A model generated the notes under the pieces. It did no database searches, was not told the origin of the DNA, and saw only the letters and a program-made list of their open reading frames with translations. This document shows, in pieces, positions 4,219 to 6,972 of a stretch of 11,594 nt of DNA. Location of the stretch: IMG/VR virus record IMGVR_UViG_2737471843_000006, positions 1 to 11,594 of that record. One strand, 5' to 3'. The position numbers and the translations under genes are program-made. The stretch is from a virus. Its lineage: Duplodnaviria; Heunggongvirae; Uroviricota; Caudoviricetes. Within the stretch, counting starts at the first letter, position 1. Every line of letters starts with the position of its first letter.

Positions 4219-4439
4219 TATCGCGCCCTCAACAATGAGTTTTGTGATGCGGTGCCTGGTGCCTCCAGGTGACGTTAACCAGTTAACAATTAACGCCGGA
4301 TACAGAGAATCCACCCATAACACTGTTTTTGGTTTTAACTGTTCCGCGTGCGCTCAGCCGCATTCACCACATCACAAAATTCACTTTAAAAAGGGCGGCA
4401 GAGCAGTCACGGAGTAAAACTGATACCGCCAAACGTCAC

Positions 4440-4786
4440 CAGAAAATTGATAACAGAGGGCGTTGCAGCGGGGTTGTCACTTAAGCGTATGGTCAACCTG
4501 ACAACCCGGTGTCCTCAACGGGGGAAGGAATAACCCCGCCATACTTACCGCCTCGCCATTTCGCGGATTGCCACAACCGGAAGCGCACGGTCGACGAAAA
4601 TTTAACGACAGGCTATCTATGAACCAGCTACCTCGCCGTGCGCTTTCGCGTTATGGTCTGACTTTTCAGGGAAATATCCTTTCAGTAAACTGTCAGTGCC
4701 GGATGCTCACCCGTGTCCGGCGCACGCACTCCACCTCACCCGTGGAGAACTCCTTAATTACCAACCTTAGCTTCGTTGGTTAGCTA
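4440..4786. other. Structured GC-rich non-coding region inside the early-left operon (candidate ncRNA, terminator or processing region)
   Basis: No ORF of 60 aa or more with an SD on either strand between 4219 and 4786. Perfect 9-bp inverted repeat GGGTTGTCA (4471-4479) / TGACAACCC (4499-4507). GC hairpins at 4519-4538, 4696-4723 and 4760-4780. Confidence 0.3.
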
Positions 4787-5164: not shown

Positions 5165-5401
5165 TCACTCACCTGAGTTTCTTTCCAGCCAGCGACGGGC
5201 ACCATTTTCGGTTTTAAACGTTTTGCTTTTGGTATACGTCATCGCGGTGAACGTACCGTCCTGGTTGGGGAACACGCCACATACCAGAGATTCGCTGTTG
5301 CCAAGATCGATAGTATCCATGCTGACCTCATTTCCCCTTAACGCCGGGGTAGCGGAACAAAAACCTGCTGCATAGTTATTAAAGTTGAACCCTGCCGTCA
5401 T
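5165..5401 (-). CDS. Hypothetical small protein (78 aa from ATG 5401; alternative start at 5320 gives 51 aa)
   Basis: First gene downstream of the pL-like promoter. ATG 5401 has GAGG about 9 nt upstream; the internal ATG 5320 (MDTIDLG...) has a better-placed GAGG 6 nt upstream. Stop is tightly coupled to the next ORF. Confidence 0.4.
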   Translation of the reverse strand: MTAGFNFNNYAAGFCSATPALRGNEVSMDTIDLGNSESLVCGVFPNQDGTFTAMTYTKSKTFKTENGARRWLERNSGE

Positions 5402-5501
5402 GTTCTTACGCCTCGGGCTGGCTACTTAACCCCTGACCACTGCCTGGTAACTCGAGGTATTGCCCTGTATTGTGTGGGACGGGATGGGTTGGTATGGGAA
5501 A

Positions 5502-5546
5502 ACTATAGGAAATGCCTAATTACTTGTCAATAGGCTATGCCTAATA
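5502..5546 (-). promoter_or_regulatory. Left operator/promoter (OL/pL-like): -35 TTGACA (minus; plus 5524-5529), 16-bp spacer, -10 TATAGT (plus 5502-5507), overlapping operator palindromes
   Basis: Operator AATAGGCTATGCCTAAT at 5529-5545 and weaker site at 5504-5520, centres about 25 bp apart. 5524-5545 is the exact reverse complement of 6168-6189 on the other side of the repressor gene. Confidence 0.5.
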
Positions 5547-5638
5547 ATTTGGGCGCAACCTAATAGGTGATGGTTTGTGGGAGAGGTAGTAGGAGTTAAC
5601 TAACGGGAACTAGGAATTTCCCGTCGGACCATATAAGT

Positions 5639-6115
5639 TTAAGTTCCTGTCTTGGTGATGTTCTGGCTTTTCCGTTTTGATTCTTGATTTTTCAGATAGT
5701 TAGCTACCTTCATTTCCATTGCGGCAATGTAGGCGCGAACGTCATGATCAACCCAACTAGGCTCCGTAGCATTTCCAGATAAGATGAAAGCCACAATTGC
5801 TCTTTTTTCATCAGAGGCGGCTTGATAAAGGCTGTTTATGTCTAAAAGTTCACTTTTTGTATCTGAAGTGGATGGGGTTGGTATGGGGTATTCGTTAAGC
5901 CCCCAATGCTCTGGACCAACCACATCAGAAAAGAAACGCCATAGTTCTGGAAGTTTGTCTTTACTTATCGAACCTTTCTTAATCCAGTCATGGATTGATG
6001 GTGGTTGGACTTTGAAATGACGTGCGATTTCCGCCTTTGATTTGACGGCTCCTGATGCAATTTTTTTGTTAATGGCCTGCTCTATCGCTCGGCCTAAGTC
6101 TTTACCACTAAGCAT
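5639..6115 (-). CDS. racR: Prophage repressor, HTH (XRE/cI-like) DNA-binding protein, RacR-like (158 aa)
   Basis: N-terminal HTH AEIARHFKVQPPSIHDWIKKG. Transcribed divergently from a Cro-like gene, with operator palindromes on both sides. Size and arrangement fit the racR-ydaS-ydaT module of Rac-type prophages; the symbol rests on architecture and memory, not on a search. Confidence 0.8.
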   Translation of the reverse strand: MLSGKDLGRAIEQAINKKIASGAVKSKAEIARHFKVQPPSIHDWIKKGSISKDKLPELWRFFSDVVGPEHWGLNEYPIPTPSTSDTKSELLDINSLYQAASDEKRAIVAFILSGNATEPSWVDHDVRAYIAAMEMKVANYLKNQESKRKSQNITKTGT

Positions 6116-6142
6116 TGCTTAATAGTCTCCTATGCGCATCGC

Positions 6143-6212
6143 GTTAGGCAATCCCTACTCTCGATGTATTAGGCATAGCCTATTGACAATTTAATTAGGC
6201 TAAGCCTAATAT
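6143..6212 (+). promoter_or_regulatory. Right operator/promoter (OR/pR-like): three operator sites and -35 TTGACA (6183-6188) / -10 TAATAT (6207-6212)
   Basis: Perfect palindrome ATTAGGC-TAA-GCCTAAT at 6194-6210, near-palindrome ATTAGGCATAGCCTATT at 6168-6184 and a weaker site at 6143-6159, centres 25-26 bp apart. The -35 and -10 overlap the operators. Confidence 0.55.
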
Positions 6213-6239
6213 TGTTGCGTGTTTTTTGGAGTTCATTCG

Positions 6240-6563
6240 ATGAAAAAAGATAACTATTCATTCAAACGAGCTTGTGCTGTTGTCGGTGGGCAATCAGCAA
6301 TGGCTAGGCTTTTAGGTGTATCTCCTCCAAGCGTAAATCAATGGATCAAAGGTGTACGTCAGTTACCTGCTGAGAGATGTCCTGCGATTGAACGAGCAAC
6401 AAAAGGTGGTGTCCTGTGTGAAGAACTTCGTCCTGATGTTGATTGGACATACTTACGACGCTCGTCATGTTATTCGCAGAATATGTCGATGAAGCAACCA
6501 AATGACGAAAACGATCATACCCGAAGCATCAAGAGGCAAATGATTCATGAAAATCAAACATGA
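6240..6563 (+). CDS. ydaS: Cro-like HTH regulator, YdaS-like (107 aa from ATG 6240)
   Basis: GGAG SD 9 nt upstream of ATG 6240. HTH SAMARLLGVSPPSVNQWIKG, with a recognition helix similar to that of the repressor. First gene of the rightward operon from the pR-like promoter. The track ORF starts at 6219 with no SD. Confidence 0.75.
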   Translation: MKKDNYSFKRACAVVGGQSAMARLLGVSPPSVNQWIKGVRQLPAERCPAIERATKGGVLCEELRPDVDWTYLRRSSCYSQNMSMKQPNDENDHTRSIKRQMIHENQT

Positions 6564-6972
6564 GCACATCCGCATGGCGATGAATGCCTGGGCATACCCT
6601 GATGGTGAGAAAGTTCCTGCAGCTGAAATAGCCCGGACTTATTTCGAACTGGGGATGACGTTCCCTGAACTGTACGACGACAGCCATCCGGAAGCCCTGG
6701 CCCGTAATACCCAGAAAATTTTCCGTTGGCTGGATAAAGACACCCCTGATGCTGTTGAAAAAATGCAGGCTCTGTTACCGGCGATCGAAAAGGCGATGCC
6801 GCCTTTGCTGGTGGCCCGTATGCGCAGCCACAGTTCTGAATATTACCGTGAGATCGTCGAACGGAGGGATCGGCTGGTGAAGGATGTCGATGATTTTGTT
6901 GCGTCAGCGGTTGTTTTGTATGACCAGATGAATCGCGGCGGCCCGGCAGGGAATGCTGTGGTGATGCACTAA
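6547..6972 (+). CDS. ydaT: YdaT-like protein (141 aa), proposed CII-like regulator or toxin of Rac-type prophages
   Basis: Start overlaps the ydaS-like gene by 17 nt, with AAGAGG upstream. Size and position match ydaT. Sequence MKIKHEHIRMAMNAWAYPDGEK... Confidence 0.7.
   Translation: MKIKHEHIRMAMNAWAYPDGEKVPAAEIARTYFELGMTFPELYDDSHPEALARNTQKIFRWLDKDTPDAVEKMQALLPAIEKAMPPLLVARMRSHSSEYYREIVERRDRLVKDVDDFVASAVVLYDQMNRGGPAGNAVVMH

Follow-up and report, generated by a model that had tools for sequence, protein, structure and literature searches.

A Probable Rac-Type Immunity Core with Predicted Left Operators and a Leftward Promoter Beyond racR

In the stretch of viral DNA analyzed here (11,594 nucleotides; IMG/VR record IMGVR_UViG_2737471843_000006; hereafter the window), a repressor gene is bracketed by two inverted copies of one sequence, each carrying a promoter element that points outward. 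Is this arrangement the two-sided operator and promoter system of a lambdoid immunity region, or does the repeat have some other explanation? We proposed, with a probability of roughly 0.85, that region 5502-6212 forms the immunity core of a lambdoid prophage of the Rac type. Its overall arrangement is textbook lambdoid and mostly known; the annotation of a left operator and promoter (OL/PL) is an incremental addition.

Gene Content of the Locus

The window is a Rac-type Escherichia coli prophage with racR, ydaS, and ydaT, and its locus shares 99.9% identity with many E. coli chromosomes on which it is annotated (RefSeq annotation included) as racR, HTH, and YdaT. The genes and the gene-associated site that define the locus are as follows.

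5165..5401, minus strand: DUF1391 / YdaF-YdaG-like protein, 78 aa, first open reading frame of the leftward (early-left) operon (Pfam DUF1391, 94.5 bits)
5639..6115, minus strand: racR, 158-aa repressor (NCBIfam RacR equivalog; RefSeq annotation of the 99.9% identical locus)
6240..6563, plus strand: ydaS, Cro-like HTH protein, 107 aa (Pfam YdaS_toxin, P22_Cro)
6540..6557, no strand: YdaT box ATGATTCATGAAAATCAA, covering the ydaT start and marking where the heteroimmune cassette ends on the right (agrees with the published ATGATT-N6-AATCAA; PMC11879457)
6547..6972, plus strand: ydaT, CII analogue (Pfam YdaT_toxin, PF06254, 40.9 bits; PMC11879457, PMC9986795)

RacR matched NCBIfam NF049929, an equivalog family, over its full length (246.3 bits, cut-off 200; E = 1.2e-73), which places it in that family. 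The ydaS product belongs to both PF15943 (YdaS_toxin; 103.9 bits, cut-off 30) and PF14549 (P22_Cro; 35.3 bits, cut-off 30.2), and its relatives of solved structure are the Cro proteins 3bd1 (the closest), 8co2, and 1rzs. No Pfam family, peptidase S24 included, matched RacR at E <= 0.01, and weak HTH matches alone appeared at E <= 10; the best Pfam match was the YdaS family, below threshold (E = 0.012). RacR acts like CI, yet by its domain content it stands outside the lambda CI / LexA-type family of autocleavable repressors.

The order of the genes is lambdoid. The divergent racR (minus strand) and ydaS (plus strand) are separated by 124 bp, with sites at 6108, 6144, 6169, and 6195, and the cro-like gene is followed by the CII-type gene ydaT, with the YdaT box at 6540-6557; the function of ydaT has been demonstrated (PMC11879457). 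On the other side, the leftward operon holds the DUF1391 reading frame, in the position that ydaF and ydaG hold in K-12, together with DicF/DicB-like genes, an exonuclease, xis, and int. An Rfam search of 5400-6300 returned no matches.

Operators, Promoters, and the Inverted Repeat

The window was searched for the operator motif TTAGGC-N3-GCCTAA. At <=3 mismatches we obtained 10 matches, compared with 3.9 +/- 1.8 expected, and 10 was reached in none of 200 shuffles; at <=2 mismatches, all six matches fell into two clusters, one on the left of racR (5505, 5530, and 5549) and one on the right (6144, 6169, and 6195). Both clusters together also held every exact ATTAGGC heptamer of the window (five of five). 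A promoter scan found two sigma-70-like promoters in 5300-6400, and these were a mirror pair, PL on the minus strand and PR on the plus strand. The features on the two sides of racR are listed from left to right.

5402..5495, minus strand: predicted PL leader, with +1 near 5495 as suggested by the -10 position
5502..5507, minus strand: PL -10 hexamer TATAGT (promoter scan, predicted)
5504..5520, no strand: OL1, TATAGGAAATGCCTAAT, overlapping the PL -10 by 4 nt (motif match; predicted operator)
5524..5546, no strand: left arm of the 23-nt perfect inverted repeat
5525..5530, minus strand: PL -35 hexamer TTGACA (promoter scan, predicted; TTGAC invariant in a six-genus alignment)
5529..5545, no strand: OL2, AATAGGCTATGCCTAAT, overlapping the PL -35 by 2 nt (motif match; predicted operator)
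5548..5564, no strand: OL3, TTTGGGCGCAACCTAAT, a weak site (2 mismatches; predicted operator)
5603..5624, minus strand: hairpin ACGGGAA-N8-TTCCCGT between the racR stop and OL, a possible terminator on weak evidence
6107..6123 (match 6108-6122), no strand: fourth right-hand site, ACTAAGCATTGCTTAAT, over the racR ATG (3 mismatches; the published "O3", PMC9638921)
6143..6159, no strand: OR3, GTTAGGCAATCCCTACT, in the racR promoter region (motif match; RacR footprint region, PMC9638921)
6167..6189, no strand: right arm of the 23-nt perfect inverted repeat
6168..6184, no strand: OR2, ATTAGGCATAGCCTATT, overlapping the PR -35 by 2 nt (motif match)
6183..6188, plus strand: PR (PydaST) -35 TTGACA (promoter scan; mapped by experiment in K-12, PMC9638921, PMC11879457)
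6194..6210, no strand: OR1, ATTAGGCTAAGCCTAAT, a perfect palindrome between -35 and -10, overlapping the -10 by 4 nt (0 mismatches)
6207..6212, plus strand: PR (PydaST) -10 TAATAT (promoter scan)

The first-pass annotation of this DNA had described a perfect 22-bp inverted repeat around racR. The repeat is perfect and its arms do bracket racR, but it measures 23 nt (5524-5546, TTGTCAATAGGCTATGCCTAATA, vs 6167-6189). No other inverted repeat in the window is as long; the maximum for exact inverted repeats ranged from 11 to 16 nt over 100 shuffles, and a 23-mer pair is expected analytically at ~1e-6. When a 1-nt indel is allowed, the symmetry extends outward into the next operator (GCCTAATTAC-TTGTCAA vs GCCTAATTAAATTGTCAA). 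The promoter scan also bore out the presence of a TTGACA -35 in each arm, facing away from racR. The operator spacing of 25-26 bp held on the right (25 and 26, start to start) and for the first step on the left (25), but the step to the weak third left-hand site is 19; likewise, the count of at least two sites on the left stood, whereas the three sites on the right became four with the weaker, previously unlisted one over the racR ATG.

The right half of this operator and promoter model has been published before, footprints and mapped starts included. As the annotation had suggested, we compared the locus with the published Rac immunity region, and the right cluster proved to have been mapped in K-12 (PMC5700373, PMC9638921). 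In that strain, three GCCTAA/TTAGGC repeats were reported together with RacR EMSA and ChIP on the intergenic region (PMC5700373), followed by the PydaS start, its -35 TTGACA and -10 TAATAT, a RacR DNase I footprint, and an ATTAGGC logo (PMC9638921). A substitution in the -10 of K-12 PydaST abolished activity, and OR1 corresponds to the published O1, which was protected at the lowest RacR concentration (PMC9638921). The window PR has TTGACA and TAATAT separated by 18 nt on the plus strand, with 10/12 consensus matches.

Conservation and Mosaic Boundaries of the Left Cluster

K-12 carries the same left cluster, and its OL2 and OR2 differ solely within the 3-nt spacer. By alignment, the TATAGT of K-12 lies at NC_000913 ~1,419,626-1,419,631, which would put the predicted leftward start of that strain ~7 nt past it. 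Among distant RacR homologues (57-64% identity), those of Mixta, a Pseudomonadota MAG, and Proteus keep ATTAGGCA.AGCCTATTGAC-N6-ATTAGGC-N3-.CCTA at ~100 bp downstream of the repressor stop, within flanks that are unalignable. OL1 is kept in K-12, E. ruysiae, Mixta, the MAG, and Proteus; OL3 is degenerate in K-12, missing at the equivalent position in Mixta, the MAG, and Proteus, and not conserved beyond Escherichia. The fourth right-hand site is better conserved in the distant homologues, as TTAGGCAATGCTTAG. In two Achromobacter loci, the RacR N-terminal domain is fused to a longer protein and the second operator pair is 1.9-2.6 kb downstream, reminiscent of lambda, where OL lies beyond rexAB. 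Within Escherichia (44 unique OR and 30 unique OL sequences), at most a few sequences had changes in the PL -35 or in the half-sites of OL1, OL2, or OR2, the OR1 half-sites and the PR -35 were slightly more variable, and spacers and linkers varied freely, including the 3-nt spacer of OL2 across the 30 unique sequences. All single-base differences between the repeat arms were in the spacer.

The boundaries of the region can be read from heteroimmune phages. Tritos and 640R1 are 96-97% identical to the window up to 5483-5489 and ~81% identical from 6541, and between these breakpoints they carry an unrelated repressor, cro, and operators. The immunity region is therefore swapped as a module between otherwise homologous phages, as in lambdoid phages generally, and since homology ends at 5483-5489 and resumes at 6541, PL/OL was swapped together with racR, OR/PR, and ydaS. 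The left break lies just past the predicted PL +1, and the PL leader, to which the homology with Tritos and 640R1 extends, is common to these heteroimmune phages; with 18 C and 6 G among its first 45 nt, the leader is rich in C and poor in G over its 5' half.

PL itself consists of TTGACA (5530-5525) and TATAGT (5507-5502) separated by 17 nt on the minus strand, with 11/12 consensus matches. Sequence and conservation thus place a second operator cluster with a leftward promoter beyond the repressor, and the left cluster is best read as the Rac OL/PL. This reading is supported by the quality of the promoter, the conservation of operator and -35 bases across genera, the position of the heteroimmune boundary, and the published leftward derepression: ydaG, ydaF, ydaE, racC, and kilR rose 40-70-fold or more when RacR was lowered (PMC6765115; bioRxiv 10.64898/2026.09.06.749655). 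The Rac recombination genes show zygotic induction, according to work cited in PMC5917428. We infer that PL is an active RacR-repressed promoter with its +1 near 5495. OL and PL are not described in the Rac papers searched, which treat the racR-ydaS intergenic region, and papers dealing with kilR and OxyS do not mention the promoter; older papers may contain them. Between racR and OL, a terminator scan found none. The hairpin at 5603-5624 folded no better than shuffles (z = -0.67, not significant) and shows one compensatory change, G-C to A-T, relative to K-12; it possibly insulates PL from racR read-through.

A Model of the Switch and the RacR Octamer

In the model that we propose, RacR dimers bind 17-bp pseudo-palindromes, ATTAGGC-N3-GCCTAAT. 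PL and PR share one design: the last bases of OL2 or OR2 are the TT of the -35 TTGACA, and OL1 or OR1 fills the promoter spacer and runs into the -10 as far as its fourth base. The 23-nt inverted repeat is then OL2 with the PL -35, mirrored by OR2 with the PR -35. In this model, RacR bound at PR (PydaST) blocks RNA polymerase and silences ydaS and ydaT along with the replication genes, racR is autoregulated through OR3 and the site over its ATG, and RacR at PL would silence the leftward operon from the DUF1391 gene through the DicF/DicB-like and exonuclease genes to xis and int. The earlier proposal of a lambdoid-type switch, with two outward operator/promoter sets flanking the repressor, is supported, by experiment in K-12 for the right set and, for the left, by sequence, conservation, the mosaic boundary, and the published leftward derepression.

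RacR forms an octamer (PMC11014345), and the centers of OL2 and OR2 are 639 bp apart. We tentatively suggest, as a proposal with somewhat less than an even chance of being correct, that the left cluster works as an OL and, bridged by the RacR octamer, acts cooperatively with OR in a ~640-bp loop enclosing racR alone. The authors of PMC11014345 explained the octamer by the four intergenic sites, with OL not needed; the published RacR EMSA, footprints, reporters, and in vitro transcription used intergenic-only templates, so that an OL layer would be missed. If the looping OL is true, RacR would directly control recET, xis-int, and the division inhibitors through PL, the octamer would have a physical rationale, and experiments on the racR-ydaS intergenic fragment alone would be incomplete. 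A real PL would offer a one-step account of the derepression of recE/recT, xis/int, kilR or dicB-type division inhibitors, and ydaFG upon a drop in RacR. The useful increment is an explicit, conservation-backed, predicted OL/PL for the RacR immunity group; in practice, the consensus ATTAGGC-N3-GCCTAAT and the cassette boundaries at ~5490-6540 could be used to classify Rac-type immunity groups in annotation.

Alternative Explanations for the Repeat and the Left Cluster

We weighed three other readings of these sequences. That the inverted repeat and the motif clusters arose by chance in AT-rich intergenic DNA has the shortness of individual half-sites in its favor and nothing further; 100 shuffles reached 16 nt at most compared with the 23 observed, the motif count was matched in 0 of 200, and the features are kept across genera, and this reading is refuted by the shuffles and the cross-genus conservation. 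It is also most improbable that racR sits in a small mobile cassette for which the arms serve as terminal inverted repeats or recombination sites. The arms do enclose a single gene, and the immunity region does move between phages as a cassette, but racR is all that lies between them, with no transposase or recombinase, the flanks GCCTAATTAC and TTTAATTAGG give no direct target duplication, and the mosaic breakpoints (5483-5489 and 6541) are well outside the arms, which coincide with footprinted RacR sites (PMC9638921) and vary in the 3-nt spacer only, as expected of a dimer operator. We rejected a transposable element with terminal inverted repeats on the same ground, as there is no transposase and the outer flanks differ.

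The third reading is that the left cluster binds RacR without a working promoter, either as an auxiliary anchor for looping or cooperativity with OR or as a decayed remnant of PL in a defective prophage. Rac is cryptic in K-12, OL3 is degenerate, and published transcription starts cover the right side, with none found for the left. Against it, the promoter has 11/12 consensus matches with a 17-nt spacer, and a -35 and a -10-like hexamer (TATAGT, TAATAT, or TAACAT) persist across genera. In addition, the heteroimmune break is located immediately past the predicted +1, where it should be if the repressor is exchanged together with its promoter and operators, and leftward genes were derepressed 40-70-fold when RacR fell (PMC6765115). 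We thus considered a left cluster without promoter activity improbable, and we retain the OL/PL reading.

YdaS and the RacR Operators

The recognition helices of RacR and YdaS had been called near-identical in the first-pass annotation. The peptides that it quoted for the two proteins are correct and the similarity is genuine (RacR 18-46 vs YdaS 9-37: 12/29 identities, pairwise E = 5e-6), but near-identity overstates it, as 6 of 10 residues agree in the helix-3 stretch (QPPSIHDWIK vs SPPSVNQWIK); at the sequence level, the resemblance is genuine but moderate. The placement of helix 3 was based on homology. AlphaFold2 single-sequence models were of low confidence (pLDDT 51 for RacR and 57 for YdaS), below what a fold search needs; these models agree loosely with each other in that PPS caps the helix after the turn.

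We also analyzed the covariation of helix 3 between Cro and repressor. Modules were taken from annotated phage records, a viral-contig scan with the YdaS alignment having given near-identical Rac loci only; Pseudomonas phage U5, whose annotated Cro frame is wrong, and Klebsiella YX3973, Xfas53, and CF63a, which have no clear divergent repressor, were left out. Across 13 YdaS-type modules, the own-repressor sum was 239, compared with 151 +/- 16 for permuted pairs, a value reached in 0 of 100,000 permutations (p ~1e-5). The Rac YdaS helix 3 ranked its own repressor first among the 13, and HK639, BTP1, UPF_BP1, and AsXd-1 likewise had partner-specific helix-3 matches.

From the helix-3 similarity, this covariation, the autorepression of PydaST, and the CP-933P precedent, we infer that YdaS, as the Cro analogue, binds the RacR operators. 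It is conceivable but rather unlikely that YdaS does not compete for them, so that the shared helix reflects common HTH descent and YdaS acts elsewhere or as an anti-repressor at the protein level. Consistent with that alternative, YdaS does not repress racR, unlike lambda Cro (PMC9638921), its orthologues change PPS to SPT, PPT, PVS, CPT, or PST with operators that are still TTAGGC, and the helix-3 pattern [IV]..W is common to the P22-Cro/YdaS family at large, as is the G[VI][ST] turn that precedes it in the majority of its members. Against it, helix 3 covaries between Cro and repressor across the 13 modules, and inactivation of ydaS raised PydaST 16-fold, a Cro-like autorepression (PMC11879457); in CP-933P, the YdaS footprints overlap the PaaR2 sites and PL933P is repressed (PMC8630535), and operator competition between RacR and YdaS is stated in PMC11014345. 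Because YdaS does not repress racR and PPS varies beside unchanged operators, the two proteins may not be identical in specificity.

Comparison with Known Systems

In lambda, cI is flanked by two operator clusters, each overlapping an early promoter that fires outward, and adjacent operators are ~24-26 bp apart, center to center. The cro gene diverges from the repressor gene and is followed by CII, and the repressor octamerises. Rac likewise has its repressor between operator clusters, a divergent Cro gene followed by a CII analogue, and an octameric repressor (RacR: PMC11014345). Unlike in lambda, the Cro analogue YdaS is reported not to repress racR (PMC9638921). The two systems also differ in that OL and OR are ~640 bp apart in Rac, with no rexAB between them, and ~2.3 kb apart in lambda, that RacR has no S24/LexA-type cleavage domain, and that Rac has four right-hand sites, one over the start codon, and 17-bp operators with a 3-bp spacer. 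In phages 434 and lambda, helix 3 begins with the same residues in a phage's repressor and in its Cro (Gln-Gln-Ser in 434 and Gln-Ser in lambda), since the two proteins recognize one set of operators. The Rac counterpart would be QPPS in RacR and SPPS in YdaS, given the proposed binding of YdaS to the Rac operators; prolines at these positions are unusual.

The window is a sequence variant of the K-12 Rac system (Krishnamurthi 2017, PMC5700373; Wisniewska/Mruk group, PMC9638921, PMC11014345, PMC11879457), ~90% identical over the region, with the same genes and ATTAGGC-N3-GCCTAAT at seven equivalent positions. Both have TTGACA-18-TAATAT at PR, and in both the racR ATG is covered by a site and the ydaT ATG by a YdaT box. 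In the window, OL2 and OR2 agree at all 23 nt, whereas one spacer base differs in K-12, and the leftward operon holds DicF and DicB-like genes in the window but kilR and sieB in K-12.

CP-933P / Sp12 of E. coli O157:H7 (paaR2-paaA2-parE2, ydaS, ydaT) resembles Rac in its YdaS-type Cro, YdaT-type CII, and octameric repressor. It differs in the family of its repressor and in its operator (consensus GTTTAGTAA), in the toxin-antitoxin pair between repressor and OL, and in its YdaS and YdaT, which are 26% and 31% identical to the Rac proteins. In CP-933P, PL has the same -35 and -10 as PR and is accompanied by three OL sites, this PL is repressed by PaaR2 and YdaS, and the footprints of the two proteins overlap (PMC8630535). 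The logic of the CP-933P PL is the same as that proposed here for Rac.

Locus Identity and Gene Content

Many E. coli chromosomes match the region 5400-6600 at 99.9% identity, with annotations of racR, a helix-turn-helix protein, and a YdaT-family protein; the Rac prophage of K-12 MG1655 matches it at approximately 90%. The genes of this locus are as follows.

5639-6115, minus strand: racR, repressor gene, 158 aa (NCBIfam RacR equivalog, 246 bits against a cut-off of 200)
6240-6563, plus strand: ydaS, YdaS/P22-Cro family protein
6547-6972, plus strand: ydaT, YdaT family

To the left lie a DUF1391 gene, a DicF RNA, a DUF1482 gene, and exonuclease, excisionase, and integrase genes, and to the right lie replication-type genes. 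The window is a lambdoid prophage from int to the replication region, and the inverted repeat and operators analyzed here fall on its immunity region. The DicF antisense RNA (4393-4444, minus strand; Rfam RF00039, 76.7 bits with the gathering score at 48) is located in the leftward operon and adjoins a DicB-like gene; thus, in this prophage a Qin-like dicBF division-inhibition module takes the place of the kilR and kilS of K-12 Rac. The predicted leftward promoter PL is followed by the DUF1391 (ydaF-like) gene, which the GenBank phage records ON470595.1, ON470583.1, and ON470580.1 label "head-DNA stabilization protein D"; judging by position and family, this looks like an annotation error.

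Operator Motifs and Promoter Matches on Both Sides of racR

The racR gene is bracketed by a perfect inverted repeat of 23 nt (5524-5546 and 6167-6189), put at 22 bp in the first-pass annotation and the longest within the window. In 100 shuffles, the longest exact inverted repeat measured 11-16 nt, and approximately 1e-6 pairs of 23-mers were expected. The motif TTAGGC-N3-GCCTAA, with at most three mismatches, was matched 10 times in the window against 3.9 expected, and none of 200 shuffles reached 10. The six matches with at most two mismatches were found at 5505, 5530, and 5549 on the left and at 6144, 6169, and 6195 on the right, and all five exact ATTAGGC heptamers in the window fell within these two clusters. 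The excess over shuffles and the clustering of the best matches bear out the earlier proposal of operator palindromes on both sides of racR. A promoter scan of 5300-6400 returned exactly two sites, the mirror pair PL and PR, in agreement with the proposed TTGACA −35 box in each arm facing outward from racR.

5530-5525, minus strand: PL −35, TTGACA; 17-nt spacer; −10, TATAGT, at 5507-5502
6183-6188, plus strand: PR −35, TTGACA; 18-nt spacer; −10, TAATAT, at 6207-6212
5504-5520: OL1, occupying the PL spacer, its end forming the first four bases of the −10
5529-5545: OL2, 17-bp operator, its end forming the first two bases of the PL −35
5548-5564: OL3, weak, only 19 bp from OL2
6107-6123: weaker right-hand site, overlapping the racR ATG
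6143-6159: OR3
6168-6184: OR2, 17-bp operator, its end forming the first two bases of the PR −35
6194-6210: OR1, occupying the PR spacer, its end forming the first four bases of the −10

On direct inspection of the sequence, PL and PR share one layout; thus, the inverted repeat is OL2 plus its −35 mirrored by OR2 plus its −35. With a 1-nt indel, the arm symmetry extends into OL1 and OR1, and this indel accounts for the spacers of 17 versus 18 nt. The center-to-center distance is 639 bp for OL2-OR2 and 690 bp for OL1-OR1.

Two other origins of the arrangement were considered. Chance was excluded for the repeat and the motif clusters by the shuffles, in repeat length and motif count. Terminal repeats of a mobile element were also excluded, as there was neither a transposase nor a target duplication, the breakpoints lay outside the arms, and the arms coincide with footprinted operators.

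The operators and PR of Rac are already known, with published experimental support. Three GCCTAA/TTAGGC repeats were described in the 123-bp racR-ydaS region, with RacR binding demonstrated by EMSA (three complexes), thermal shift, and ChIP-qPCR, and with repression of a reporter (Krishnamurthi et al. 2017; PMC5700373). A 2022 NAR study mapped a single ydaS start with −35 TTGACA and −10 TAATAT, replacement of this −10 abolishing promoter activity, together with three racR promoters; the ydaS promoter was the first to be protected in the RacR footprint, and an ATTAGGC logo was derived, the operators being defined as inverted repeats (T/A)TAGGC-N3-GCCTA(T/A), one over the racR ATG (PMC9638921).

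Conservation and Exchange of the Left Cluster

K-12 carries the same left cluster, with OL2 and OR2 identical outside the spacer. In Mixta, a Pseudomonadota MAG, and Proteus, which have distant RacR homologues (57-64% identity), only a single block of the DNA past the repressor stop could be aligned: ATTAGGCA.AGCCTATTGAC, then six variable bases, ATTAGGC-N3-.CCTA, and then a −10-like TAATAT or TAACAT. Two Achromobacter loci encode a RacR-like N-terminal domain within a longer protein and have a second operator pair 1.9-2.6 kb downstream. In these loci (L010, 2501-3601; L012, 2501-3589), the N-terminal HTH is 77-78% identical over 77 residues and is joined to a far longer C-terminal region (366 and 362 aa), and the TTAGGC operators are retained; the protein is a domain-swapped repressor of the same DNA specificity.

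In a set of 86 Escherichia-type loci, in which 44 right-hand and 30 left-hand sequences were unique, at most a few sequences had a change in the PL −35 or in a half-site of OL1, OL2, or OR2; the OR1 half-sites and the PR −35 were somewhat more variable, and the 3-nt operator spacers and linkers varied freely. Fixed half-sites with spacer variation are the signature expected of a dimer-binding operator. In the 46 strict-pattern loci, the arms were perfect in 38, differed by one base in seven, always in the spacer, and differed by four bases in one; this variation shows the perfection of the 23-mer in the window to be incidental. A contig labelled as a Candidatus Nanosynbacter MAG (L004, JARKOR010000130.1) has a 91%-identical racR locus of E. 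coli type with every operator present; this is almost certainly a binning contaminant.

The heteroimmune phages Tritos and vB_EcoS-640R1, whose repressor and cro genes are unrelated, matched the window at 96-97% identity as far as 5483-5489 and at approximately 81% again from 6541, with sharp boundaries. These breaks delimit an exchangeable immunity cassette (approximately 5490-6540) holding PL/OL, racR, OR/PR, and ydaS. On the left the cassette begins 6-12 nt past the predicted PL start (near 5495), and on the right it ends at the YdaT box; just inside the boundary, Tritos has its own TATAAT and different palindromes.

Published expression data concern the same arm. When RacR was lowered, ydaF, ydaG, ydaE, and racC rose approximately 40-fold and ydaC, kilR, and ralA more than 70-fold (PMC6765115); racR CRISPRi derepressed the whole left arm (bioRxiv 10.64898/2026.09.06.749655); and the classical zygotic induction of rac recombination functions is cited in PMC5917428. 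Taken together, the K-12, cross-genus, Escherichia, mosaic-boundary, and expression evidence indicates that the left cluster is most likely an OL/PL. That it is a binding site devoid of promoter activity is unlikely, given that both PL hexamers are conserved and given the position of the cassette boundary.

Several further features were observed around the putative PL. An exact 13-nt direct repeat, GGGTTGGTATGGG, has one copy in the predicted PL leader, where the left mosaic boundary falls (5486-5498), and another within racR (5875-5887; codons for YPIPTP). K-12 has a degenerate leader copy, and the repeat could be chance or a recombination footprint. The predicted leader (5402-5495, minus strand) is 91-97% conserved in several phages with other immunity regions, and its first 45 nt, rich in C and poor in G (18 C, 6 G), are rut-like. 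Rho-dependent silencing of Rac genes is known, and the leader may be related to it. Between the racR stop and OL3, a hairpin, ACGGGAA-N8-TTCCCGT (5603-5624, minus strand), shows one compensatory G-C to A-T change in K-12 and could insulate PL from racR read-through, but its predicted fold is no more stable than those of shuffled sequences (z = −0.67), and a U tract is absent.

Recognition Helices of RacR and YdaS

RacR 18-46 and YdaS 9-37 shared 12 of 29 residues (E = 5e-6), and the best Pfam match of RacR was the YdaS family, below threshold (E = 0.012). The helix-3 segments compared were QPPSIHDWIK in RacR and SPPSVNQWIK in YdaS. The PPS residues would cap the helix after the turn, judging by homology to solved P22-type Cro proteins and, loosely, by low-confidence models; their counterparts in 434 repressor are Gln28-Gln29-Ser30. 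The [IV]..W pattern and, in most members, the G[VI][ST] turn are generic to the YdaS/P22-Cro family, and YdaS orthologues beside unchanged TTAGGC operators carry SSPT, SPPT, TPVS, SCPT, or APST. Thus, the similarity of the recognition helices noted in the first-pass annotation stands, but the description "near-identical" does not.

Classically, the repressor and Cro of one phage share helix-3 residues. We compared 13 immunity modules with YdaS-type Cro proteins; the helix-3 heptamer of each Cro was scored against the first 100 residues of all the repressors. Own-partner scores summed to 239, against 151 +/- 16 when permuted (0 of 100,000 permutations reached 239), and the own repressor was the best match for seven of the 13 Cro proteins, including that of Rac; some of the top matches lay beyond the HTH and amount to noise. 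Partner pairs included SQPAIQK/SQPAVHK (HK639), AQPTIWR/KQPTVWR (BTP1), SQAAIQK/SQAAVQK (UPF_BP1), and SQGAIQK/TQGAVWK (AsXd-1). The rule thus holds among YdaS-type modules, which supports, short of proof, the suggestion that the RacR operators are also recognized by YdaS. The parallel with Cro is incomplete, because YdaS reportedly does not repress racR (PMC9638921).

Proposed Switch and Comparison with Known Systems

We propose that RacR dimers on OR1 plus OR2 and on OL1 plus OL2 would keep RNA polymerase off PR and PL, and that OR3 and the racR-ATG site would serve racR autoregulation. YdaS would probably act on the same operators, as Cro. RacR is octameric (PMC11014345), and analogy with lambda CI and with PaaR2, the repressor of the sibling prophage CP-933P (PMC8630535), suggests that such an octamer could link OL to OR. 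YdaT plays the CII role, as published: this CII analogue, working through an ATGATT-N6-AATCAA box that overlaps the ydaT ATG, switches on a PRE-like promoter, and ydaS inactivation raised PydaST (PR) 16-fold (PMC11879457). The window has the YdaT box ATGATTCATGAAAATCAA at 6540-6557, over the ydaT start codon, agreeing with the published K-12 and CP-933P box.

Sites downstream of racR are mentioned in none of PMC5700373, PMC9638921, PMC11014345, and PMC11879457, and full-text literature searches, whose reach covered older Rac work in part, returned no description of a Rac OL. The finding is correct, yet it is of a known system whose right half is in the literature. The increment is an explicit, predicted OL/PL for the RacR immunity group, supported by cross-genus conservation and mosaic boundaries; it is an incremental annotation, not found in the accessible literature. 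In CP-933P, a PL/OL following the same logic as the one predicted here has been published.
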